A stretch of 64,000 nucleotides of DNA from Patellaria atrata CBS 101060 (lineage: Eukaryota), in contig MU006090.1 in the NCBI GenBank assembly GCA_010093705.1, positions 895,817 through 959,816 on the forward strand, in the 5' to 3' direction. Of the stretch, positions 29,895-46,593 are shown one piece after another; the first letter of the stretch is position 1, and the number at the start of each line of letters is the position of its first letter. The notes beneath the pieces were generated by a model that was given only the letters and a program-made list of their open reading frames with translations, ran no database searches and was not told the DNA's origin. Position numbers and translations under genes: made by a program.

Positions 29895-31177
29895 CCACCC
29901 TTCCTTCGGTCTCTCTCAAGCGCAATCGCCTTGGGTTTTTACAAAAGCTGTCTCTCTGCATTCGGCGGCGTCATACATGTTTCCACCTTCTAAGTCGTAA
30001 GGTTTGGTCTTCTCTTCTAGCAGGGTCACCCGGCGCACGAATGCTAGGTTTCAAAAATTTCGGTATATTCGGACAGAAGGCGCAATGAGGCGCCGAAGGT
30101 CCTTTTTCCAATTACTCTTCTTCACTTGGACTTATACAGCATAGGCCGGAGCAAATGTCATTGAATCTTTTCACGGCGGTTCTATAAAGGTCTATACACC
30201 TGTGCTGGTCAAGTTCTGTTTCGGGTTAGCTTTCATGGTTTGTTTACCTCATATTGTGTGAGATCGAGTCTCACCCCACCATTGTCAAAGGCTGGAGTTT
30301 ATGGAATGAATTGATGAAGGAATGATGTTCACGGCGTCGGTGCAGGACGGCTCAGGTGTTATGGCATCTATTCTGACTGTCACATATCAGATCAGGAAGC
30401 TTGGGTAGCTTTCTTATCAACCCATATAGTCTGCTTTAAGTGCTTTTATGTATGTAGTAATCACAAAATTGAATGCAGAATTTCAATGAATCGGTAAGAT
30501 AGTAAGCTTAAACTTAATAAGTTCATGTCAACCTGTGTAATCCACATCATACGCTAGTCAAATATGTGACAAGTCTGAAGAGAAAGATGCACAGTTAGGC
30601 TTAAAGCACCGTAAAGTGCTCGAAGTCGTCCATAGAGGAGCTGATGTGCAAGGGGTAACGTCAAGCCACCAAGCCAGGTACACCCAATTCAGGTGCATGG
30701 CCGCAGGAACACAAAAATTCCTTTGTTTGAATCCTGAAAGGTCCCAGGTATGGATAGCTTAGATCACCATCAACTCTTTGTTCTTCGCCATCAAAAGAAT
30801 CAAAAGCCGGTATAGAGGTAAGGCAGTCTCTAAATATACATACTATATGCTGGGGTTACGAAGATCTGGGGAAAGTCAGCGGGGTACGACTGTCTTGAAA
30901 TCTGGAGCATAGGGTTGTCGATACGTAAGTCACTATCCTGATGACGACTACTTTACGGTTAACGGGTAAGGTAAATACACAGTACAGCACTATTTTACGA
31001 AAATCGCAAATGCTTGATCATGAGCCCGACTTCTCCCGCCAGATCACCTTCCCAACAAATCTTATTCTTTCCTCCTGAAAAAGTATATAACCCCGTCGGA
31101 CCCCCCACCCTGATGTCCTAGACCTCCCTTCTCCCGCTTAACCTACACCGCCAGGAAACTTCTTCTTCACCGCCAAC

Positions 31178-33157
31178 ATGAATTGCCCTTCACGCCCAGA
31201 TGCAGATGTTCATATCGAAGGGTGGAATCAGAACCCTTCTGACCTCGCGGCCGACACTACTACGAGGAATGACTTGAACCATATCGCTAATTCCCGCCAG
31301 CAAAGAGGTCATCGTCTAGATCCTACTGACCCTTCACTCATCGATGTCGTAGCTGTACAACAGCCAGAACACACCGATTCTGAACACAAGAATCAGAAAA
31401 AGAGCTCGGGAAAAAAGGAATACAAAGCTACCGAGCAAGAGAGGGATGTGGCAGCAATGCCTACGTCCCTGTATGGTGGTTCAAGTGGAGCGGACGGTCC
31501 CTCATCTCCTGTCATGGCTTCCTTGACCAGAGCGCGCGAGATTTTGGTGAAATATTCCAAATTCGTTGGCCCAGGTTTCATGGTTGCCGTTGCGTACATA
31601 GATCCCGGTATGTTAGCTTGGAAATAATGTCCTCAGATTCCGACATCACTATCTGGGACAACACAAGAGAAAGCTGCTAACGTAAAAATTGTTGGTCAGG
31701 GAACTATGCAACCGATGTTGCCGCAGGTGCTACCTATAGATTTAAATTACTATTCATAATTCTTATGTCTAATCTTTTTGCTATTTTCTTACAAGCACTT
31801 TGCGTCAAATTGGGTACCGTGACTGGTATGAACCTAGCGGAAAATTGCAAAGCTCACCTTCCCTCATGGTTGAATTACGTGTTATACTTTTTCGCTGAAT
31901 CCGCAATCATTGCCACGGATATTGCAGAGGTTAGTAAAAAGTCTCTACGCCTTTTGCTTTGTCCATCGGTAAAATATGAATTTTCGATTTGAACTAACCG
32001 GAGCAGGTTATTGGCACTGCCATCGCCCTAAACGTCCTCATTAACGTACCGCTTGTCGCGGGTTGCGCCATCTCCATCGTGGATGTTCTCATAATTTTAT
32101 TATTTTATAGACCACAGAATGGGTCAATGAAGGCCCTCAGAGCATTTGAATTTTTCGTCATGGCACTAGTCCTTGGCGTCGTCATTTGCTTCTGCTTCCA
32201 ACTCAGTCTCATCGAAAATACCTCCGTTAAAGAGGTATTTAGGGGATATCTTCCTTCACACGCTGTTGTGGAGTCTAAAGGGCACGTATCTCCCTACTTT
32301 AGCTCATACAACCGATCAACTGACTCAATTATAGTCTCCTCCAATCATGCGGTATCCTCGGTGCGACAGTCATGCCTCACTCCCTTTACCTAGGTAGTGG
32401 CATCGTTCAACCGCGCCTTAAGGAATTCGACGTACGAGCTGGAGCCATCTCGCCCTCCCATGGCGACGAAGATGACCCAGCTCTCGAGAAATACCGCCCT
32501 TCCATCTCCGCCATCCGAGCATGCATGAAATATAGCATCATCGAATGCGCCATCTCTCTGTTCACCTTCGCCCTCTTCGTCAACAGCTCCATCCTCATCG
32601 TTGCTGGAGCTTCACTTTCAAACACTCCTGCTGCAGAGGATGCTGACCTCTTCGCCATACATGACCTCCTCGCCCGTACGCTTGCCCCTGTGGCTGGTAC
32701 CATATTTGCTCTTGCGCTACTTCTTAGTGGTACCAGTGCTGGCATTGTCTGTACTATTGCTGGTCAAATGGTTTCCGAAGGCCAACTCAATTGGACAGTC
32801 GCACCTTGGGTACGCCGGCTCATCACCCGTGCCATTTCTATTACGCCCTCGATTATCATCGCAGGCGCAGTCGGTAAGCAAGGGCTTAGCAGGGCGCTTG
32901 AGGGTAGCCAGGTCGCACTCTCTGTAATCCTGCCATTTGTCTCCGCGCCTCTGATCTATTTCACCTGCCGCAACAGCGTCATGACGGTCGCGACGGATGG
33001 CGAGGGTGAAGTTGTGGGCGAGGGCGAGGCGAGGGTTTTTGGAGGCGTGAAGATGAGGAATGGTTGGGTGACGATTGTGGTGGCAGGCGTGATCTGGGGA
33101 ATCATTGTTGTTATGAATGTTGCGCTTCTGGTATTGGTGGGACTCGGTATTGAGTAA
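31178..33157 (+). CDS. SMF1: NRAMP-family divalent metal (Mn/Fe) transporter, Smf1/Smf2-like
   Basis: Introns 31608-31699, 31930-32006, 32282-32334 (GC-AG). Signature motifs AYIDPGNY and GATVMPHSLYL; AGQMVSEG. Confidence 0.93.
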
Positions 33158-34467
33158 GGGGATAGCGGTATCTGAGATATGTTACCGCGGTCCGGGAAAC
33201 TAGACAGAATGGTTTCTGTCGATCAATGAGAGACCATCAAGGCAGAGCTCTGAAAATGGATTGAACCACTGGGTAAGACTAATGGTTATGAATGATTATG
33301 GAATGATATGATCGGTGAAGGAATTGATATTTCGAAAAGGGGAAGCATAAATGGTAGTGCTTAGGACCTGATTTGTGATAGATAAGCACGCCCGTACGTA
33401 AGACAGAATGGACATCAACTCGTAAAATGCTCAATCATACCACACATCTTCGTATTATGCTGGGATGATTAAGTTCACTTCAAGTAATGACGGATTGATC
33501 GGAAGTCTACCAGTTCCCTATTATGACATTTATCACCTATCGTATAGTTGATTTAGGATCCTCTTACCCCTTTGGTTTACAGGAAATTGAACAAGTACTG
33601 CGGCCTTGTAACTGTAGCTATCGTGAAACCATACGGATACACCGACTGAATGCCTTCTCCCGGCGCTTTCTCCGTCGCTACTTTATAGGAAATACCGGAG
33701 GGTACCGGGAGTCCCAACCGTAAATGATTGGACTATAAGAGAATACTTCAAGCTCTCAACGGCACTGCAGTGAGAAAAAATTGAGACCACACCGGAAGGT
33801 GCCCAGTCGTATGGATTGCTTATCCGTGACGGTCTACCTGTTGTACCATAGCTCTCCAGATCGTCCCCGGCTCCAGTTACAGGAAGTACCGGAATGTACT
33901 GAAGCCTTTGCGGCCGTCCATATGGCCGAATTGTACGGATGCCACTACCGACTTATTTTTTTTGGAATTCACTCCGACTATCACGTATAGGGAAGACCCG
34001 AGCATAAATGGATCCTCAACCGTAAAAATAACTTATAATTAACCAGGGAAACCGTCCGTTGTAAGTTTTACTTAACCATTTAGATCCCCTTTTCAAAGTG
34101 TATGGGCAGTTCAGCGCTCCTTTCTTTGGATGAAGACAGTGTACTGCGTACTTCTGATGAATTAGTAATAGCCCCCATTCTTAAATGTTACTAACCCCGT
34201 CGATCTTTCCTAAAGTGAGTGTGAGGTGGAAAGAAGAGTGGTGCAAAAGGTGCAAACAAATGGACAACCAAATAGTTCTACCTTCCTAGCTCGTTATCCC
34301 TGGAGACCAAGCTAAACTTGAAAAATGGAAGCTGCTTGAGATGGATGAAGTTATTGGAGCAGCGGCAGAGCTACCTCAGCTGTGCCTAACCTAAGGTAAA
34401 GGTACTGTCATCGGTAGTCATCTCCGCGCATATACCTTACGATAACCTAATGTGAATGTTCCCCTCT

Positions 34468-34475
34468 CACGTGGG
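34468..34475 (+). promoter_or_regulatory. CACGTGGG E-box (Pho4/NUC-1/PalcA-type site)
   Basis: About 130 bp upstream of the acid phosphatase ATG. Confidence 0.45.
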
Positions 34476-34602
34476 GAACGGGTGGAACTTTCTTATCTAT
34501 GAAATGGAAAGAACGTAGAACGAACGAGTTCTATTTATTTTCCTTCCCCTCCATTCTCGTCCATTCGTCTCAATTGATCCTGAACCATCGGTTCCGCTAT
34601 CT

Positions 34603-36105
34603 ATGATGTCTCCAAAGATCTCAATTGCTTTCTGGAGTAATCTCTTAACATGTGCTCTGGGTGAAACTATCCTGGGGGTAACTGTCTATAGCCGCCATGG
34701 TGACCGTAAGTTATAGAAACCCCTTCACACCATTGTGAAACTACCGTGTGAACCAATTCTGACAAGTGCAGGTTCATCGAAGCATTACAAAGGTTACAGC
34801 TTGACCAACCTTGGACTGAACCAGAACTTCCAAACTGGGTCTTTCTATAGAGAGCAGTACATTGATGTCGCTTCCCAAAAACAAATCCTAGGAATATCGG
34901 AGGACCTGTACAAGCCTTCTGAGATATGGGCCTCTGCTCCCGATCAATTGGTCTTATCTAACACCGCAACTGCTTTCCTCCAAGGCCTTTACCCTCCAGT
35001 TGACGGAGCTGATCACTCTCTTGCTGTTCAAACCCTCACCAACGGTTCTAGTTACACCAACCCTCTAAATGGATACCAGTACGTGCTTTTAAACGCCAAG
35101 GATAGTGATTCACCGGATACCATCTGGATCAAGGGAGACGATAGTTGCCCAGCTTATCAAGACGCTGCCGATACCTTCCACACCAGTGACCTTTTCCAGG
35201 AGAAGGTAGAAGCAACCAAAAGCTTTTATTCGAAATTCTGGGATATTCTAGATGATGTTTACGATTACGAAGCGGAAAACATGACATATGCAAATGCTTA
35301 CGACATCTACGATCTCATTAACGTTGCCCGCATACACAATGAATCCTCCCCAGCGGTCAATGTCAGTTCCGCAGACATGTTTCAGCTCCGTACTCTCGCC
35401 GATAGTGCTGAGTGGGCTTCTATATACAACGAGTCTCAGCCAGCCAGGTCCATCGGTGGTCAAAGTTTAATGGGAGGTATTCTTCATCAACTGAATCAGA
35501 CAGTTATTGGCAAGGGCAAACTCAAGTTTTCGCTTCTAGCGGGCTCTTATGACAACTTCATGGCTTTCTTCGGTCTTGCAAATCTAACATCCGCCTCAAC
35601 TAACTTCTACGGCCTTCCAGGATATGCATCCACCATGGCCTTTGAGATACTGACCGAAAATGACGTTCAGGCATTCCCCTCCAGCACATCTGAGCTGAAG
35701 GTCCGGTTCCTCTTCCGTAACGGCTCGGATAGCGAACTAACTGCTTACCCTCTTTTTGGTCAATCCGAAATAGTCCTTCCTTGGGACCAATTTGTTTCTG
35801 AAGCGGAAAGCCGCGGAATACTGGATCTCAGCTTATGGTGCAGTATGTGCCAAAGCACGCAAGAATTTTGCACTCCTTATCCTAATAATCCTGCATATGC
35901 TGCTGCCCATGAGTCAACTTCAACTAGCGGGAAAAGCAATATGTCGAATGCTGTAGCCGGTGTTATTGGCGCAATGGTTACTCTTGGAGTCATTGCAACT
36001 TGTGGACTTGTCACCTATCTTGTGCTTCGTCGTCGGAAGGCGCCGGTACACGACGTCTATCTCTCGGAAAAGGGTAGTAGCAGCAGTATTAGCAAGGGTG
36101 ACTAA
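34603..36105 (+). CDS. Histidine acid phosphatase family protein, signal peptide plus C-terminal transmembrane helix
   Basis: Exon 34603-34705 and intron 34706-34771 rebuild RHGDR. TM segment AVAGVIGAMVTLGVIATCGLVTYLVL followed by RRRK. Confidence 0.9.
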
Positions 36106-36701
36106 TCGCACGTGAACATCTTGGTGATTGAAAGACGGTTTGATGAATGACCATCGAGGAAAAGCAATAACAGAGGCAAGGTGACTATGGGAAATATCTG
36201 CATAGTAAAGCATGTGGTGCACTATCCAGAAACTTATCATCTCGAGTATAGAAATCTCTTTAGCCCATAATCTTAATGTAGTACTCGTGTTTGTATACAA
36301 ACAATTATGGAATTTCGTATGATGGTTCCCTCCGGCCACATTCTCATCCTGACTTTGATATTGGGGGGTGGATGTGGTCAATGGATAGAGCATATAAATT
36401 TGGGTTTGCTTAATACATTCCAGACGTCTCAATCTTATCCAATCGTAGTACTTAGTAGAATGGAAATATTTGAACTTCCAGGTCATATTGAAAGACTGTA
36501 GGGGGATTTTGAAACCAAAAAGGTCTTGTTGTGCCCTGTTCATATTGTAGTTCTATACGGATGATGTCAGTGCTCTCACCAATTGCGACGCGAGGTATGG
36601 CCGTCCTTCTATCTCACAATCACCAATCCATAATTTCAGATCATTCTTGAGCTTTGAGCCTCTTCTTGAATTATACGACCATATTCCAACTGTTCGCTGA
36701 G

Positions 36702-37514
36702 ATGATATCTATACGTATCTACCGCTCAATTGGACCCATCTCCAAGTTGGGTCGTAGATGCGTCTCGACCCTACCAAATAGTCCACACATAGTACGCGAT
36801 TAACCCCTCATTGATAACTTTAGATAGTATAAACCTAATGTATCATAACATTAGTATCATTTCCCCCATCCGAACCCGGCCTATGGTCATATCCTAACCC
36901 TTCTTCCGACATCTCCACCGACACAGTCCCTCGCAATTGCCACCTCAACCTCAATCCCACCAACTCCCCAATCTACGACCGAAAATCCCAAGTTTCTCTC
37001 AATTCTTAATGCCATTCTACGCGATAATGTAGTACACGATCCTGTTGTCCAGGCCTCTGCGAATGCCTTTGCTTCATCGGCTGGCTCTTCCTACCCAGCC
37101 ACGCTTTCACAACCCGCGCAGCAACGGAAGCGGAGAGGTGAGGGGGCCGGTGGAGCGAGCGCGCAGGGTGGTATGGGAGGAGCAGGGAGAGGTGGCTGGG
37201 TACATGTTAGCGATTTAAGGAACCCTCCTGACTATGGACGGATAGCAAATCCGGAGGATATCTTTGGCAGCGTGGAGGTGGATGGACGGGGACAGTTCGT
37301 TGAAGAAGGGGGAAATTTTCAGGAGAGTGGGACATATCGAATCGTGACGAGGGAGGGCATGTGAGTGTTCAACACAAATCATCTACAGTCGGGAAAACAC
37401 TGGACTAAGATCAATGCTAACATACAATACAGATTGGGACTTAGCCCATATATGAGAGAGACGCTCATACAGCGCCTTAAAGAACTCGAATCAAGGGAGA
37501 AGAAGACTTCTTGA
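36702..37514 (+). CDS. Conserved fungal hypothetical protein, possible mitochondrial presequence
   Basis: Introns 36792-36854 and 37361-37432 keep frame. Arg-rich, acid-free N-terminus. Core GGWVHVSDLRNPPDYGRIANPEDIFGSVEVDG..SGTYRIVTREGILGLS. Confidence 0.85.
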
Positions 37515-38268
37515 TCATGACGGATCCATGTCCATACAGTCGGTATCCTCTATCATATTCCGTCTATAATATATTCCCTTCCGTCTCCTAATATTTGAAC
37601 ATATTCGGTACACAATACAAGTTCCTTTCATGTACAACAAGCATCATCTAACTCTTACAGCTCTTCTTTCCATCACATTATCTAGCCAGGTAATGAAGCT
37701 AAACACTCCTTGGATAATATACCGAGCACTGTAGTAGTAAAGATGCGGCGTGAAGTACCGTCCGTTAGGAAAAGGAGGAACCAAGCGGGACTCCTTGGGG
37801 TGACGTGGAGAATGGTTGCATTTGTGATATACACCAGCGAGCAAAGCCAACAAAGAACATAATGGCCAGCTCGATGTTCCCATTACCTTTGCATTGTTCC
37901 AATCCTGAAATGGAATGGCACAAAGGGTATTGCTATCGTCGAATATAGGAACAAAGCATGATTGTTCTAAACAAAGTTCGGCTCTAAATTAAAGGATCCT
38001 TGTTTTTTTTCGAACCGTCGTTGGAAACAATGCACTCATTGCTCGAAATATATCAATGGTGTTCGTCCCTGACCGCCAGCCTTTTACGAGGTCGTTCACA
38101 AAATCAGACTTAGACTTTATTTCCCAAACATACAACAGCTTTGGATCAATCTGCAGGCGGATCGTAATCTCTTAGCTCCCAATCTATATTTCAATAGGAC
38201 ACCGGTAAGGTATACTCTTTCATACTTATAGAACTTACTTGTTACTCAACCTAGGCATCGAGGTCAAT

Positions 38269-39783
38269 ATGCCACAACGTAGGAGAAACAATGGGGTCTT
38301 TGGTGGGAACCAAAACGGTGGAAATCAAAATGGAGGAAATGGCGGGAATCGAAATGGAGGAAGCCGAAATCAGAACGGCCAGAATAACAGCCAACAAGAG
38401 AATCGAAGCAATGAGAACAATAACCAACAAGGGAATCGAAATAATCAGAACAATAATAACGGACGAGGGAACCGCAACAACAACAATAGGGGTCAAAACT
38501 CTGGAAACGGTAATCGAGGAAACAAATGGTGTGACACTTGTAAGAGGAACAACCATAACACAAACGAGTGCTTCAGAAATGAATGTCCCAACCAGAACAG
38601 CCAGAATAATAACTCGAACAACACCAACGACAACAACAATAGTAACAATTCGAGGAACTCGAGGAATCAGGATCGCTCTTCATATTGTGGTTGGTGTAGA
38701 CAGAAGACAGACCACCCAACTAAGACCTGCCACTACCTCGCCGAGGAGGCGCAAAAGAAGTATAATGAGACTGTACAGCGATATGAGTCCGTTCTACCTT
38801 GCCAATTTTGCCGATCACCCGACCACTCCTCTAAAGATTGTCAGCTTGAGCTCGCCGGCTTTGTATTCAGCACAATCCGCGAACGTATCAAGGCGGATCT
38901 TGCGCAAAATCTAGATGCACCCGACGTCTCCGTTGGTGACATCACCATGCTAGACGAGTATGACCCGGTCACAGCTGCTGCAATGGCTGCGCGAGCCGCC
39001 GTTCCTCCAGTACAGCCGGAACCGCGGAACCAGGCGTACTGCGTTGCATGTCACAGGCGTGGGCATTGGATCGGAGCGCCGGTGTGTCAGAAGACGCAGG
39101 CCACAGAGTCTTCAGTAGGACAGAACTTTAAGCTATGCTCATGCGGGTTCAACATCCCAGTTCCGCACCAAGCGGTTATGGATCCGAATTGGAGCTATCA
39201 GTGCCCTCGCTGCGATAGATTCAACACCTTCAATACCGTGGTTCCCGCATTCATCAACAGCGCTGGTGGCATAGCCGTCCCGTTGCAATCGCGACCTGGA
39301 CCGGTGAACAACGTCTTCTTCCTCGGGGAGGGGTTCAACCAACCCAGCCTCTCCGAATTCGAACGCGCGAAGCAGGGCGGACCGCCGTTCGTGAGGGACC
39401 TCGGCCGCGACGAACGTCCCTTCTACGGTCATGCGATGCTCGATGATGACGCCTGGGGTAACGCGCAGACATTCTTCCCCGGCTCGCGCTTGCGGCTCAG
39501 CGCCGAGGCACAAGTCATCATGGACAACCCTTCTGCAGCCGTTAACCGGGCGACCCAATCGATGGAACCATATTGCTCCGAGTGCGGTGTTCCGGGTCTC
39601 ATCTGCGATGATGATGGCGATTTGGTCATGACAGGCGCGGATCAAGCTTGCGTGGCTGGAGCAGGTAAGGGCAGAATCTGGTACTATCAACCGGGACTCG
39701 AGAGCGAGGGAAATTGGAATTGCTTGTGTGCGAAATTTGGGTATGCGCCCGCGGTTGCGTATCGACCGGCTGGTAGCACCTGA
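38269..39783 (+). CDS. Uncharacterised protein with an Asn/Gly/Gln/Arg-rich N-terminus and multiple CCHC zinc knuckles
   Basis: Uninterrupted 504-codon ORF from ATG 38269. Likely 5'UTR intron 38204-38254. Motifs CDTCKRNNHNTNEC, CGWCRQKTDHPTKTC, CQFCRSPDHSSKDC, CVACHRRGHWIGAPVC. Confidence 0.8.
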   Translation: MPQRRRNNGVFGGNQNGGNQNGGNGGNRNGGSRNQNGQNNSQQENRSNENNNQQGNRNNQNNNNGRGNRNNNNRGQNSGNGNRGNKWCDTCKRNNHNTNECFRNECPNQNSQNNNSNNTNDNNNSNNSRNSRNQDRSSYCGWCRQKTDHPTKTCHYLAEEAQKKYNETVQRYESVLPCQFCRSPDHSSKDCQLELAGFVFSTIRERIKADLAQNLDAPDVSVGDITMLDEYDPVTAAAMAARAAVPPVQPEPRNQAYCVACHRRGHWIGAPVCQKTQATESSVGQNFKLCSCGFNIPVPHQAVMDPNWSYQCPRCDRFNTFNTVVPAFINSAGGIAVPLQSRPGPVNNVFFLGEGFNQPSLSEFERAKQGGPPFVRDLGRDERPFYGHAMLDDDAWGNAQTFFPGSRLRLSAEAQVIMDNPSAAVNRATQSMEPYCSECGVPGLICDDDGDLVMTGADQACVAGAGKGRIWYYQPGLESEGNWNCLCAKFGYAPAVAYRPAGST

Positions 39784-42700
39784 AAGGGGTCAAGGTAAGT
39801 CATAAGGTAAGTGGTGTGTTAGGGCTCTAGTAGGTCTTTTACTATTTCGTTCCGTTTTTGGGTAATTTTGTAATGGTAAGTATTTTTCTTATTTGTATAA
39901 ACTTTGACTAAGTGAGGTATTACATGATAAGATGTGCTTGATACAGTCTTTTGTCACTAGATATTGCATCCTCTCAGATCGCCTATAGATATCGATTTAG
40001 GTGCTGTACACTAACTCTCCGTGTTTCCGACTATACTGTACAGAAAAGTAAATAACGTACGAAGTGCTGTGAATCATACCGAGGACTTGATCGTACGGAG
40101 AATAGAGACATGGTGAGACTTTGGACTTCAACGACCGCGAATACTGGGAAAGGTTGGCTCAAGAAAGTATAGTAAGACACCGAATGAACTCAACACTCTG
40201 CAAAGAACTATGAGATCGTCAAGTAGACACCTGGATGGAATCTCCATCTGCTTGCAACGACGCTCAAATCATTAGATTATCATGAGGTGCGCAGGAAGGT
40301 GATCAGGTACCCGCAGTTCCGAGTCCATCCTTCGGGTCCCAGGATCATGGCTCCAGGGACTGTTGATCTGATCCTTCCCCTCGACCGTTTTCCCGGCCTT
40401 GAAATGTGATGCGTCAGATGGACTCACGCTGTTACACAAACTCCTTTTTCTGGATTACAGTCTATCGTTTGAGAAGGCTGACAGCATTGCGGTGGAAGAA
40501 ATCGCTGTGATTCACAGTCGATTCGTGAGATGAAAGGACTATGAAAGATGAGAAATCTTTTAGGGAGACCTTACTACTCGCGCTGAGTTCACTGTATGCT
40601 TTGCGGTAAACAGGACTACGTATAGGAGACTAGCGAATGTGTCTCCGGGCAAAATATGACGAATGGCGAATCTGAGCAGCACAGGTAGGCGTGCATCTTG
40701 CTATAACCGTACGGCAGACCAGAAGATTTTTCAAAAGGGAATGAACTGAATGTACGAAAATCGTGCATATTACCCTTTACTCTTTACATGGTCGATACTT
40801 CGCCTCGGCTTCTGTACACTTTCCGTACACAGAACGACGTACGGAGGACTGTTAGAATTGTCTCCTCACGGGATCTCACGGGCCTATACACCACAAGCTG
40901 GAGTAGAGCCCAACCCAAGCGTACGGGAAGTCAGAAGTCCACCGAAAAGGAGAGACTTGATGTACGGGGTGGGAGTATGAAACAAGGAAGTGCTAGCAAT
41001 GGTGGTTCAGCGCATCGAGCAGATATCGGGAGGAGCGTACGGTACCAGATAGAGAGAGAATGGAAGTTTCATGCCCTTCTCCTCGATCGAAAAAAAAAAA
41101 GATTGTTTAGATGTGCCTCTCCCAGGGGTCCAGATAGAAGAACAGGAGAGCGAATATCTCATACACATATACGTTTCAGCCTTGTGGCCTTGCAACGTGC
41201 TGACCGAAGACGCGGCAATGGGTTGAGAGAAATCCCGATGCCTCAGAAGGGTAAGTGGCTGACAGCAAGTTTGGACTTTCCTGGATTCTCCTTGCTCGAA
41301 GAGGGACGGACGGATGAGGATTGAACGATGGATGCTAGAAAGAGACTTGAGGTCCAGCGAGATGGTCCGAAACCAACAAATGGTCTTCTTTTTAGTGCAA
41401 CAAGAAGGATTGTACTAGACATATACTACACGCTAGAGTAAAGTGATAAGGATGCAGGTACAAGATGTCAATTGCGCTAGTATTGAAAGCTACTTATCGT
41501 AGTGTCATTGAGGATCTGTTGAGGATGTTTCAAACGGCATTCGCAAGTCAGCTTTTTCTAGTTATCGCGAGTACTAATTCTTCGTTCTATCACAAACACA
41601 GCTTACCTTATGTGCGGTGTGAACAGTTTTGAGTCTCATGAAACAGTCGCTAGCGAGATTTACCCGCGTTAGCTTCAAACACCCGAGCTGTTTCAAAACG
41701 TGGAGATGCACCTCTATCAAAGTTCAGGACGAGAGTCGAAACAAGAGCTGGAAAGGTCGATGAACACGTTCAAGAAGGGACAATTGAGATGTGAGTAATC
41801 ATTGAACTTAGCAAGAGATGATATTATTCAAGGTAAAATAGACGATTATAGGAAGATGGTCTGTTATATGTTCAAGAATAATCGGGGCTAAAAGGTCGCC
41901 GTTTATCGTTAGGGCGAGCCGACCCGAAGCAGGCAATAGCGCTTCCCAGCCGAAGTACCTTAAACGATTATTACCCATTCCATTACTCGACCGAAGTTAC
42001 AGTAGCAAAGTCGTTCAACAACTTGCAGAAATAACAGTGTACTGTACATCTGTGGCTTCATCGTTTGACTCGATCGGGAATGTGGGCATCGCGTCGCCGA
42101 AGAGGGTAAGTGTATTCTTCCAAATTCTGTTCATGCTCGTACAGTACAGTTCAAGTACATCTTACGATCATACGTGGCGCCAGTTGCCCATACTGTATTC
42201 CAGATGAGATTCTAACAAGGTAGAGGAGTGGATAACTACTACGATTGAGGTTTCTTCTAACAATCTGCTGTACGAAAATCTCCAAGCGACATACATACAG
42301 TTACTTACCAACGTCAGCTTCGGATGCACAACAGTGAGAATTCCACTTCTCAACTTCCGTTTCGAGTCCATCTTGCACTTTTGGACTTATGATGGACGAG
42401 TGTGGTGCGATGTTGGGCGGCCTAGGTTTCTCCTCCTTCGGTTCTTTCCATGAGGCTTGAATAATGCTGTCTCATAAAGAATCAAAAAGATGATTAATTT
42501 ACTGTCAATTCCGCTCCTTCAAGCCGTTTTTTCTATTTTTATTTTCCTTTTCGAGTCAATTTATTGAGGTATCATTCTTTTCCGACTCGGCAAGCCACAA
42601 TAACTAGTTGCAGCCTTCAAATTAATTCCCAGGATGTTGTCGAAATCTTCACCCCCAAGAATCTTCAGGGGTCCCCTCAATTCCCTTCCCGCCTTCTAGT

Positions 42701-43592
42701 ATGACACCCGTCTTTTTGGTTCGGGAGGAGGTCTGGGAGAAAGTAGAGAAGAGAACAGTCGAACTGATCACAGTTGCCTTGAAACTCAAAGCTAAAGGGG
42801 GATGAGACAACTTCGTTTATCCAAGTCTGTCTCCTGCGTTCAGCCCAGCAGTCTACCATTTCTTTTGTTTCAGAACGGTCAGCTATCTAAAGATTTGCTA
42901 CAATCGCAATTCTACGACGAGTACGCGCTCTGGGGTTCGTCCACGTAACGTTTTGGCTGTCTGGTTACTTCTGGTAGACAGAAGCACTCTAGAGTCCACT
43001 TTGTGCATTGTCGTCCAAGCTTTTCGTGCATCAAAGATCCCGACGGAGCCTCCCATGGGGGCCGAGGGTCCAACGTATCAAAGGCGACAGATTAGACAAG
43101 CTCTGCTCTTTGCGCCATTGTTTGTTCATTTCGCGGAACCGCACTTATCTAGGGTCTCATTAGCCTGTGGCACGGGGCAACTGGTGTTGCGGAATATGCA
43201 GAATACTGCATGGGGCCTGGTCCAGCCAGAGTAGTGCCAGTCCGCCAGACTTCTAAATATGTTGGTGGACGTGCACTGGGGGAGGAGGAGCACGAGGGAG
43301 GTTGGAAACCAATATATAAAAGTTATCGTTGATCCTCTTCCATCTCGAGTCTTATTACATCTGCAGTCCAAATATCAATCAAAAGAAAGCATCATCGGCA
43401 GAGAGAAAGGCTTTCTTAATTCTCTCTTTCCCCTTTAATACCTTTATCCCTCTCCTCTATCACCAATTTCTTTCCTTAGCGGCTCAATCTTACCAATTGG
43501 ACCTCTGGAGGCCATTCGAAGTCCATTTCTTATCAATTCGACCGACATATAGACACGAGCGCTGGCCACTCGGACCTAATATAGCATTCAAA

Positions 43593-44354
43593 ATGATCTT
43601 CAACACTGCAACAACCCTCATCCTGCTCTTCAGCAGCGCCATTAATGCTAGTCCCGTCCTCTCTCGCCGCGCCGCCACCGTCCCCCTCTCCTCGATTCCC
43701 CTCCCGAAGGAAGCAGGCCCGGGTGGACTTCCCCCACTTGGTGACAATGAACTAAAACACATCATCCTCGGCCTCGGAACTCAGAACTATACCTGCGCTG
43801 ATTCCACCGCAAACTCTATCCCCGCATCCGTCGGCGCCGTAGCGGACCTTTACCTATTGGACCCCATCCTCACCTCTTCTGCACAAGCCAAAATTCTCAT
43901 TCCTCTTATTCCCCCAATGGCCCTCCAGTTCAGCAAATTCCTACCCAAGAAGGGTGGCAAGCCGCCCAGCCCTATGGCGAAGCTCTCCCTTCCCAACAAC
44001 GGCATAGCGGCACCCAAACTCGTATACGGAAGCCATTTCTTCAACTCCAACGGTCCCATGTTCGACCTCTTCAAATCGGTGCCAATTGAGGGTTTGAGCG
44101 CGAAAAAGGACAAGGGCATGACTGCACCTGCGAGATCTTGCAAGGGTACCAAGAGCGAGGGTGCTGTCGACTGGCTTTACCTGATCGACAATGGTCTCGG
44201 TGTCAGCTATGGCGGTGTTTCTGTGGTCTACCGTCTCGAAACTGCCGGTGGCAAGGCACCTGCCAATTGTAAGAGAAACGGCAGCGGAGCTTACACGATC
44301 GAGGTTCCATATGCCGCAGAGTACTGGTTCGCCGGACCTGTAGGGCCAGCTTAA
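43593..44354 (+). CDS. Secreted DUF3455-family protein
   Basis: Signal peptide MIFNTATTLILLFSSAINA, then SPVLSRR. Motifs GLGTQNYTC, GSHFF, VDWLYL, VYRLETAGGKAP, VPYAAEYWF. TATATAAA near 43313. Confidence 0.88.
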   Translation: MIFNTATTLILLFSSAINASPVLSRRAATVPLSSIPLPKEAGPGGLPPLGDNELKHIILGLGTQNYTCADSTANSIPASVGAVADLYLLDPILTSSAQAKILIPLIPPMALQFSKFLPKKGGKPPSPMAKLSLPNNGIAAPKLVYGSHFFNSNGPMFDLFKSVPIEGLSAKKDKGMTAPARSCKGTKSEGAVDWLYLIDNGLGVSYGGVSVVYRLETAGGKAPANCKRNGSGAYTIEVPYAAEYWFAGPVGPA

Positions 44355-45608
44355 ACCCGCTCGTCCAGCTTCACCGTGACATGGTCACGGCATCGACGCG
44401 TAACGCAAGCAGATGTTGATACGGTATCGTAATGGAAGTTGTTCTGGGCTTGTTGATTGTACATACGAATTCTTTTACTGTTCACATGTTCTCGACGTTA
44501 TTCTACGACAAAGGACCCTATTTTTTTATCTTTCATTTGGTGGTTATCTGATTCAATCTATGGTAGATTTTTCTGTTTTTGGTTGTATTACTATTTTATA
44601 CCCCTAGTGCGGCAAACAATGCAGCAACGCGAGTCACCCAAAAAGTTTCTATTCCTTTGATTCAAAAATGAACATGACATAGATGTCTATAGTCAATAGA
44701 AAAGTGTTCCAAAATCGTTCCACGCCTCCAAAAATAGCACGCACTGTATCCCACAGAAATGTATGACATGCACAACTCGTCTGTCCGAAGAAGCAATAGC
44801 ACCCGTAACGAGATTCGAATTCGTCTCGTCAATGCAGAACAGATCGAGACAAACCCATTAGAGTCAGGTGGGAGAAAATGTAACGCTTCTCTCCGGAAAG
44901 TACTACCATCTAGGACGGGTTGTGTTACCACCTGTGTGCGCGCGCGGTTAGATCATATTATCGATTTCATGCGAAACTAGGTTGGAGTAAGGGTATATCC
45001 ACTCACAATCATACTATAACACCAATATTCAATATATCATTCCTCTTGAATGATTATCATAGTACCTGTAAAAATCACCATCATCAATACACCATCTACT
45101 GTACCTCCTAAGAAGACGAAAACAGATTCGCACCTTGGGCTATACCACCCCCCAAAATTACAAACGTTACACTCTCAACCAAGCCTGGCAAGACGCGCGC
45201 TTCCCACTTTTCTTTTTGAATTGTCCTAGGTTGAGCACCCCACCCCCGCCCAATAGGCAGTATTCCGGTGACTTAGAACTGAAAATTGGTCTCGGGAGTA
45301 CCCGCTCCCGCCAACCCCGAATCTTTCATTCACGAGCTACACTTACCGGAAACGTCGCGACATCTCTCGGCTCATTATTGTTTCTCAAAAACTATACAGT
45401 AGGGAGTATGAGCAGACTTTTCAAGGACTATAAGCTGCTTCTATCATCTAGAACGATCATTCTCGAGGTTATCAGTCCTATCACACTCACAGTGCTTACA
45501 TAGGTCATACGTTCAATGTACTGTACAGGACGTAGTATGACTTATCAACGACACGAATTTCCCAATAGACCATCCAACACCCAAAAACCAGAAAAAAGAA
45601 GAAAAGAA

Positions 45609-45708
45609 NNNNNNNNNNNNNNNNNNNNNNNNNNNNNNNNNNNNNNNNNNNNNNNNNNNNNNNNNNNNNNNNNNNNNNNNNNNNNNNNNNNNNNNNNNNN
45701 NNNNNNNN
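45609..45708. other. Assembly gap (100 N)
   Basis: Run of N within an A/G-rich simple sequence. Confidence 1.
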
Positions 45709-46593
45709 AAAAGAAGACCACTACTTATCCCTCTACATAACACCCCTCGTATCTCCTATTGCACACACTGTCCCTCATCTCCCTCATCCCCTCGCACTGT
45801 ACAGTACCAAAAGACACGACCCCATCCTCACCCCTTAACCTACACGTGCAGTCCAATACATCCCACGACGAAGTCCCACCACTATACCACGGTAGAAGTA
45901 CACCATCAGACCAGCCGAATCTCACAACTCAAAACGTCTTGACTGTACTGTACTGTACCGTACAGAGCGCCAGAATCGTCAGGGTCGCCAACGCGTCGGA
46001 GCATGAGTGTACCGCCACCCGTCCAGGTCGCGAGGCAGGATCTACCGTGACCATTTTGGGGAGAGGAGGTATCAAAACCCACTCTCTGCTTCGTATACTC
46101 CGTACGTTGGGGAATGGAAGATGAGTGTGAGGTGATGGTGCGGAAGTACATGTAGTACGTCCCCTGTCTTGTCCTCTTCGATTCATATCTCGAAATCGTG
46201 GATTCTACCTGTGTCGCTTCCCCTTTCGCGTTGTACGATACAGTACTGGCGGCTCCTACTCCATATCATACCATTCGCTCTTCATTTCCTTGACGAACTT
46301 TGTCTCATATCACAGCCTAGAAGTCAAGCTCGCATGATACAGCACGAATGTTTTATTCGATAAAGCCACGCAACGAGCTCAATCATCTACATGTATACTT
46401 TCCAGATAGTCTCTCCCCCTCACTCCTATATACCCTGCCACCGCCTCCCAACACCAATTTTCCTTAAATAAAGGAAACCAGATCCAAAAAACGCCATCGC
46501 GATGCATATTCCAAATCTAAACCACCCACTCCCCATCCCTTATCTTACACAAAAGCCTCATTCCCCCTCCCCTTTCGCCCTTCCCAATCTACC

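Follow-up and report, generated by a model that had tools for sequence, protein, structure and literature searches.

The gene at positions 38269–39783 (plus strand) of the window, the 64,000-nucleotide stretch of Patellaria atrata CBS 101060 DNA analysed here, encodes a protein of 504 residues (P0001) belonging to an uncharacterised family with a new combination of domains and an uncurated C-terminal domain. It is a real single-copy fungal gene, lineage-restricted rather than an orphan. With a probability of about one half, we regard it as a host gene inherited vertically in the Dothideomycetes, whose product would act as a modular, lineage-restricted RNA-binding adaptor; this reading is built on sequence comparison and predicted structure.

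The gene and its family in the Dothideomycetes

As the earlier note had proposed, the coding sequence is intronless: one frame without internal stops runs from the ATG at 38269 to the TGA at 39783, and the first methionine of P0001 lines up with the start of the full-length homologues in the alignment. A coding extension 5′ of this ATG is ruled out because of an upstream in-frame stop. The 50 nt directly 5′ of the ATG (38205–38254; GTAAGG...CTAG) may be an intron of the 5′ UTR, its branch site being weak, and three donor-like GTAAGT sites within 100 nt of the stop (39795–39812 and 39876; two are 12 nt apart) may mark a 3′ UTR intron. The 3.8 kb downstream (39784–43592) contains no recognised gene; its longest ATG frame (40788–41324, 178 aa) had no Pfam match, and no Rfam match was found over 36000–44000. 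Two sequencing runs, probably from DNA of one sample and perhaps the source of the assembly, showed no differences over 31000–45000. The GC content rises from 0.43 (codons 1–136) to 0.59 (codons 291–504), in line with the more GC-rich 3′ half described before, and four-fold sites follow it (0.39, 0.42 and 0.64 in three segments along the gene, compared with 0.37–0.57 across ten neighbouring coding stretches). In the last 214 codons (39139–39780), the CpG observed/expected ratio reaches 1.16, more than in any other of the 13 coding stretches of the window that were compared.

The earlier note had named beforehand, as a refutation of its proposal, a match to multicopy gag frames of transposable elements; in the 28.7-Mb assembly, P0001 and the surrounding 6.1-kb stretch match only themselves, and a distant homologue used as the query returned only this locus (3/3 matches). 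Neighbouring genes encode RhoGEF/PH/PB1, Nramp, histidine phosphatase and DUF3455 proteins, and the frames flanking the P0001 gene are host genes or lack a family assignment. No LTR or terminal inverted repeat was detected over 33000–46000, consistent with the previously reported absence of LTRs nearby, and the top two direct-repeat families in this interval are 24- and 33-nt units within the Asn-coding part of P0001 itself. An active or recent LTR or LINE element was rejected on these grounds (one copy, no LTR, and flanks in which each frame is a host gene or lacks a family).

A search of 1.84 billion representatives with residues 137–504 yielded 23 proteins at E ≤0.001, namely P0001 and 22 homologues, so that the "orphan-like" label of the earlier note has to be dropped; the number is a lower bound on the range, coming from one sensitive search with a single divergent query. 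Among the 21 homologues that were looked up, nine have names, all hypothetical or "CCHC-type domain-containing". These nine are all from Dothideomycetes, six from the Pleosporales (Trematosphaeria, Byssothecium, Lophiotrema, Lojkania, Amniculicola and Polyplosphaeria) and three from the Botryosphaeriales (Macrophomina, Neofusicoccum and Diplodia), with one entry for each named species, which agrees with the earlier description of a lineage-specific, real protein matching no characterised family. An additional intronless member (L002) was recovered from a metagenome contig (1 of 69 candidates), and none of 115 candidate stretches from viral contigs was confirmed as family. Three word-indexed protein searches (1, 2 and 2 matches) missed known members and have no bearing on range. 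In a literature search with subscription journals outside its scope, none of six member accessions was found, nor was a description of the family found by topic.

The family alignment is collinear across the full length. In full-length relatives (500–630 aa), a basic low-complexity tail is followed by five or six knuckles, then by a Cys4 ribbon and lastly by the conserved C-terminal region, and the homologues share this whole layout at overall identities of 20–45%. Identity is 30–43% within the Pleosporales and 20–25% between the two orders; P0001 shares 22–27% with eight full-length members (seven named and one from the Neofusicoccum cluster). A profile built without P0001 recovered it among 2945 frames, at E 1.2e-8 through the region of knuckles 4–6 and at E 3e-24 through the C-terminal domain. 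In a 23-row tree from a quick maximum-likelihood run, from which near-duplicates and the shortest fragments were left out, the six named Pleosporales and three named Botryosphaeriales were split by a branch with an SH-aLRT of 100, and the two Massarineae formed one well-supported group; P0001 fell outside both named orders on a long branch (3.35), its placement being unsure. Since the orders separate in the tree and each named species occurs once, the family fits a vertically inherited, single-copy, fast-evolving gene, as judged from sequence. The window and the L002 contig have no neighbours in common over ~10 kb downstream, a comparison that is uninformative at such distance and that lacks the upstream side of L002, where the contig is cut off. 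None of five frames beside L002 (2392–5364 and 9052–10572, minus strand) had a Pfam match, and none matches the window.

Knuckles, ribbon and C-terminal domain

P0001 carries four CCHC knuckles, two canonical and two variant as noted before, separated by linkers of 38, 23 and 66 residues (all features below are on the plus strand). The first, CX2CX4HX4C at residues 88–101 (38530–38571), corresponds to family knuckle 1, with 13/17 identities to that of P0004 (Trematosphaeria) and 12/17 to that of P0015. It is followed by a second Asn tract at residues 108–136 (38590–38676; 52% Asn). At this position, relatives have an N-rich linker and then knuckles 2 and 3; since the first knuckle of P0001 is the family's first, knuckles 2 and 3 are the ones it lacks. 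The CX2CX5HX4C motif at residues 140–154 (38686–38730) is family knuckle 4, whose ligands are kept in 13/13, 13/13, 14/14 and 14/14 aligned homologues. A predicted helix (38731–38787; helix 19–37 in the model of residues 137–504) joins it to knuckle 5, CX2CX4HX4C at residues 178–191 (38800–38841), and this linker is 23 residues long in all four members measured. The knuckle 5 ligands are kept in 15/15 aligned homologues, and a second helix is predicted after it (residues 194–216; 38848–38916). Family knuckle 6, CX2CX4HX6C at residues 258–273 (39040–39087), varies in its H-to-C spacing; Cys-258 and Cys-261 are each kept in 16/16 homologues, His-266 in 13/16 and Cys-273 in 17/17. Knuckles of the CLIP1 type bind proteins, and weak CLIP1_ZNF matches to knuckle 6 appeared in 6 of the 28 family proteins (E 0.007–0.08, all under the cut-off).

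In 14/14 proteins, each of the last three knuckles has an aromatic residue next to its first Cys. The zf-CCHC profile of Pfam was passed at its cut-off by only one of 28 family proteins, the best score of P0001 (knuckle 5, E 0.19) lying below. Using a knuckle pattern fitted to the observed spacings, four or more motifs appeared in none of 5000 shuffles of residues 87–504 (one motif in 29, two or more in none). The putative zinc ribbon of the earlier note is borne out by its conservation: at residues 290–315 (39136–39213), the CxC pair Cys-290 (18/18) and Cys-292 (18/19) is followed by the CxxC pair Cys-312 and Cys-315 (18/19 each). The ribbon is missing from P0008, P0014 and L002. Weak zinc-ribbon matches in Pfam were obtained for P0006; NCBIfam gave no family for P0001 and two weak ribbon matches in one of 23 members.

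An acidic D/E-x-x-M motif in the knuckle 5–6 linker (38938–38949) recurs in 11/19 members, and a DxxGDxVM form lies in the C-terminal domain (39607–39630). A related DNA pattern had ten matches in the genome, two with an in-frame stop, versus none for the reversed control, and the motif is possibly a short linear motif of fungal proteins. A literature search for an acidic D-x-x-M motif found no publication.

The family-defining C-terminal region, residues 359–504 (39343–39780), comprises PS and GNxQxxFP motifs followed by a compact predicted domain (~409–504), and this domain of about 100 residues is the best-conserved part of the family. Its cluster of six cysteines, recorded in the earlier note, is present, but only part of it is conserved: Cys-436 (21/22), Cys-439 (22/22), Cys-485 and Cys-487 (18/18 each) are kept, whereas Cys-446 (2/22) and Cys-461 (10/22) are not. 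This pattern points to a single Cys4 zinc site of the form CxxC...CxC. Asn-398, Gln-400, Pro-404, Asn-426, Asp-447, Asp-451, Val-453, Met-454, Gly-466 and Gly-468 are invariant or nearly so. According to the AlphaFold2 model of residues 359–504 (28 sequences; mean pLDDT 77, with 73/146 residues at 90 or above), the domain spanning ~409–504 is compact, and the conserved GNxQ motif N-terminal to it is poorly defined. No Pfam family covered this region in any of the 28 family proteins. Compared with 48,161 PDB representatives, the model gave four matches at Z ≥2 (best Z 2.2, rmsd 2.4, 45 aligned), and Foldseek against PDB and BFVD gave none at E 0.001; the absence of a fold match says nothing on whether the fold is new. 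The longer model of residues 137–504 is weak (pLDDT 54), with generic helical-hairpin matches only (best Z 6.9, rmsd 4.1, 72 aligned) and no match in BFVD. In the ESM Atlas, a first match (0.81; zf-CCHC, 29%) is a lead only, and residues 375–504 gave no usable match.

It is highly improbable that P0001 represents a decaying or non-functional open frame. Although it has lost two knuckles and diverges most within the family (22–27% identity, longest branch), its 504 codons are intact, it retains all 16 knuckle ligands, the four ribbon cysteines and the invariant C-terminal residues, and the frame lacks RIP-like dinucleotide skew (composite index −0.29 to −0.58).

The N-terminal tail and the question of a Gag origin

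The low-complexity tail at residues 1–86 (38269–38526), made in part of the 24- and 33-nt repeats, is composed of 40% Asn, 22% Gly, 13% Gln and 13% Arg, with one aromatic residue, so the Asn-rich start and the second Asn tract described earlier both stand. Q/N-rich prion domains of the yeast type have at least 30 Q/N in 80 residues and a PAPA-type score above 0.05. P0001 reaches the former, as 44 N/Q fall within its best 80 residues, more than in any other of the 13 full-length members, but fails the latter at −0.013; on this PAPA-type scale, 13/13 full-length members score below 0.05, which favours a condensate over an amyloid, as the earlier note had suggested. That note's prion-like Asn region does not hold as a family trait: only 6/12 full-length relatives reach 30 N/Q in 80, and 8/12 carry RGG repeats (ten in L002), which P0001 lacks. 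In all 13 full-length members, K+R exceeds D+E across the first 130 residues. By composition, the conserved trait is a predicted disordered, basic G/N/R/K region rather than an Asn prion domain, and for the tail a disordered, RNA-binding region is a better fit than a prion domain.

These data bear on whether the protein might be a functional amyloid or prion, a Rim4-like repressor that would assemble in SDS-resistant form through its Asn-rich region. The RNA-binding modules of Rim4 are RRMs; unlike this amyloid-like protein, the family has knuckles and a tail that scores low for amyloid propensity. Budding-yeast Rim4 does combine an RNA-binding module, putative here, with a rapidly evolving disordered region that keeps an amyloid-like repressor function and forms amyloid-like assemblies (PMC12483275, in part), and P0001 has the highest N/Q count of its family. 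We nevertheless give this reading little credence: half of the relatives stay below the N/Q threshold, PAPA-type scores are low throughout, and the tail of P0001 is net basic with three aromatics in 136 residues.

The earlier note had also suggested a Gag derivation. An anciently domesticated retroelement Gag or ORF1 protein, now restricting or packaging transposon RNA, would account for the CCHC knuckles and for the intronless genes of P0001 and L002, and single-copy co-opted gag genes, Crtg12 and Crtg13, exist in Dothideomycetes (PMC8321522, in part). The evidence runs against this origin, which we hold to be distinctly improbable. Gag-clan, Arc or PNMA matches in Pfam were found in 0/28 family proteins (P0001 searched to E 10, the others to E 1 or E 0.1), the gene has neither an LTR nor a second copy, and four family members compared with 25 knuckle loci of the genome, gag-like frames included, gave a best E of 0.13. 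In Gag proteins the globular domain comes first and the knuckles after it; here the knuckles are N-terminal and central and the globular domain is last. The family resembles Crtg12 and Crtg13 in being single-copy and Dothideomycete-restricted, and it has CCHC knuckles in common with retroelement NC. It differs from them in reaching the Botryosphaeriales, in its knuckles preceding the globular domain and in having no match to the Gag clan, the profiles by which the Crtg genes were defined (PMC8321522, in part). In the part of the Crtg supplement available to us, three family accessions had no match, and by our own reading of the three-letter codes the 17 Crtg13 labels in its tree look like other taxa (PMC8321522).

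Gypsy-like gag frames of the P. atrata genome (L021:1441–2673, L022:781–1893 and L023; G000:C31, C2 and C27) have a long Cys/His-rich tail past the nucleocapsid knuckle. In L021, L022 and L023, this tail contains a CX2CX4-5HX4C motif and several C-x-x-x-C...YH repeats; these frames are not homologous to the P0001 family.

A putative RNA-binding adaptor

Several observations argue for an RNA-binding adaptor. P0001 has whole-length homology with 22 proteins, in which the zinc ligands are kept at only 20–45% identity; aromatics flank the last three knuckles in 14/14 proteins, tails are basic in 13/13, and RGG repeats occur in 8/12. The best PDB sequence matches of the family profile, although weak, are RNA-binding knuckles (HIV NC, E 0.009; Lin28, E 0.025), and family knuckles 2–3 match a CNBP-like protein of the P. 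atrata genome (summed E 1.2e-10). The split of the named orders (SH-aLRT 100), together with the single copy, supports the vertical inheritance of a host gene. CCHC knuckles bind single-stranded RNA and also proteins (PMC3384339, PMC3528734, both in part), and nucleic-acid binding, as proposed in the earlier note, is what the anatomy points to. Conversely, knuckles 2 and 3, the two most canonical ones, have been lost from P0001, which also has no RGG; its zf-CCHC score is under the cut-off, which a single family protein exceeds; its linkers, at 23–66 residues, are long and set it apart from Gis2 and Air2 with their tandem knuckles; and knuckle 6 is weakly CLIP1-like in 6/28 proteins. Moreover, the role assigned to the C-terminal domain is a guess, and the tree is a quick one with a P0001 branch of 3.35.

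Some of these features would also suit a multi-zinc-finger protein scaffold or a DNA- or chromatin-associated factor, in which the atypical knuckles, the ribbon and the C-terminal domain would mainly contact proteins or DNA, with the tail used for targeting. The knuckle spacings are atypical, the long linkers are predicted to be helical, knuckle 6 leans weakly towards CLIP1_ZNF, the acidic D/E-x-x-M motif recurs between knuckles 5 and 6, and knuckles can serve as protein-interaction modules (PMC3528734, in part). We consider such a factor rather unlikely, however, since RGG-rich basic tails and conserved knuckle aromatics are typical of RNA binders and CNBP-like canonical knuckles 2–3 are present in most relatives.

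Among known knuckle proteins, Gis2/Byr3/CNBP (ZNF9) resemble the family in having both several CCHC knuckles and a basic stretch rich in Gly and Arg, and their association with granules would be the counterpart of the function proposed for P0001 and its relatives (PMC3528734, in part). CNBP is an 18.7-kDa protein made largely of seven canonical knuckles, whereas the family (500–630 aa) has four to six knuckles, most of them atypical and far apart, and adds the ribbon and an extra C-terminal domain. An assignment of P0001 itself to Gis2/CNBP was rejected, the protein having 504 residues and four knuckles (two canonical; five or six in relatives) rather than seven canonical ones. By our reading of the translations, the P. 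atrata genome contains separate knuckle genes of CNBP-like (two further loci, G000:C13 and C7), Msl5-like and Mpe1-like type.

To our knowledge, the C-terminal Cys4 domain has no counterpart in the Air proteins. Air1/Air2 (ZCCHC7, TRAMP) use a knuckle array to bind RNA and to bridge protein partners (PMC3384339, in part), which by analogy is the working model here. In these proteins, five knuckles stand in tandem on flexible linkers, and linker 4 carries an IWRxY motif; P0001 has four knuckles and two predicted helices. P0001 was not accepted as Air1/Air2, lacking five tandem knuckles with short linkers (38, 23 and 66 residues here). IWRxY is absent in 35/35 proteins, with WRxY alone in two, after knuckle 5, and a PF21759 search for an Air orthologue found no match in the genome, nor in the controls. 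The human stress-granule knuckle protein ZCCHC3 restricts LINE-1 (PMC10351740, in part) and offers a precedent for an anti-transposon role, by functional analogy only, the shared sequence seen being the knuckle motif.

For the RNA-binding adaptor, we propose the following mechanism. As their conservation shows, the knuckle array, the ribbon and the C-terminal Cys4 site bind several zinc ions. The class of the knuckles suggests that they, and chiefly the helix-linked pair 4–5 with its conserved aromatics, would grip single-stranded RNA, as knuckles do in Air2 and nucleocapsid proteins (PMC3384339, in part). As its composition implies, the basic N/G/RGG tail would add non-specific RNA affinity and may partition the protein into RNP granules that are liquid-like rather than amyloid. 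In the weakest step, the C-terminal domain, perhaps with knuckle 6, might recruit a protein effector, so that the bound RNAs would be stored, repressed or routed to decay, as with Air1/2 and Gis2/CNBP.

The fast evolution and narrow range of the family hint at a specialised context, for example sexual development or genome defence. In an unlikely but more specific form of this idea, the family would organise RNA granules specifically in Dothideomycetes, in the service of the sexual cycle or of transposon silencing. The knuckles would select RNAs and the tail would condense them; the C-terminal zinc fold, unsolved, would present its invariant Asn, Gln and Asp residues as a site of binding or catalysis in the silencing step.

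Many crop pathogens and endophytes are Dothideomycetes, a group in which little is known about lineage-specific RNA regulators. With the orthologue of Macrophomina, Neofusicoccum or Trematosphaeria, for instance, the family offers a defined, single-copy target ready for knock-out, and it adds a zinc domain that is small, well predicted and outside Pfam. Very low identity with strict conservation of ligands is the pattern of germline and genome-defence factors in other groups. If it holds here, the family would add a new component to RNA silencing in fungi or to translational control at the sexual stage; if not, it would still be a new domain family worth curating.
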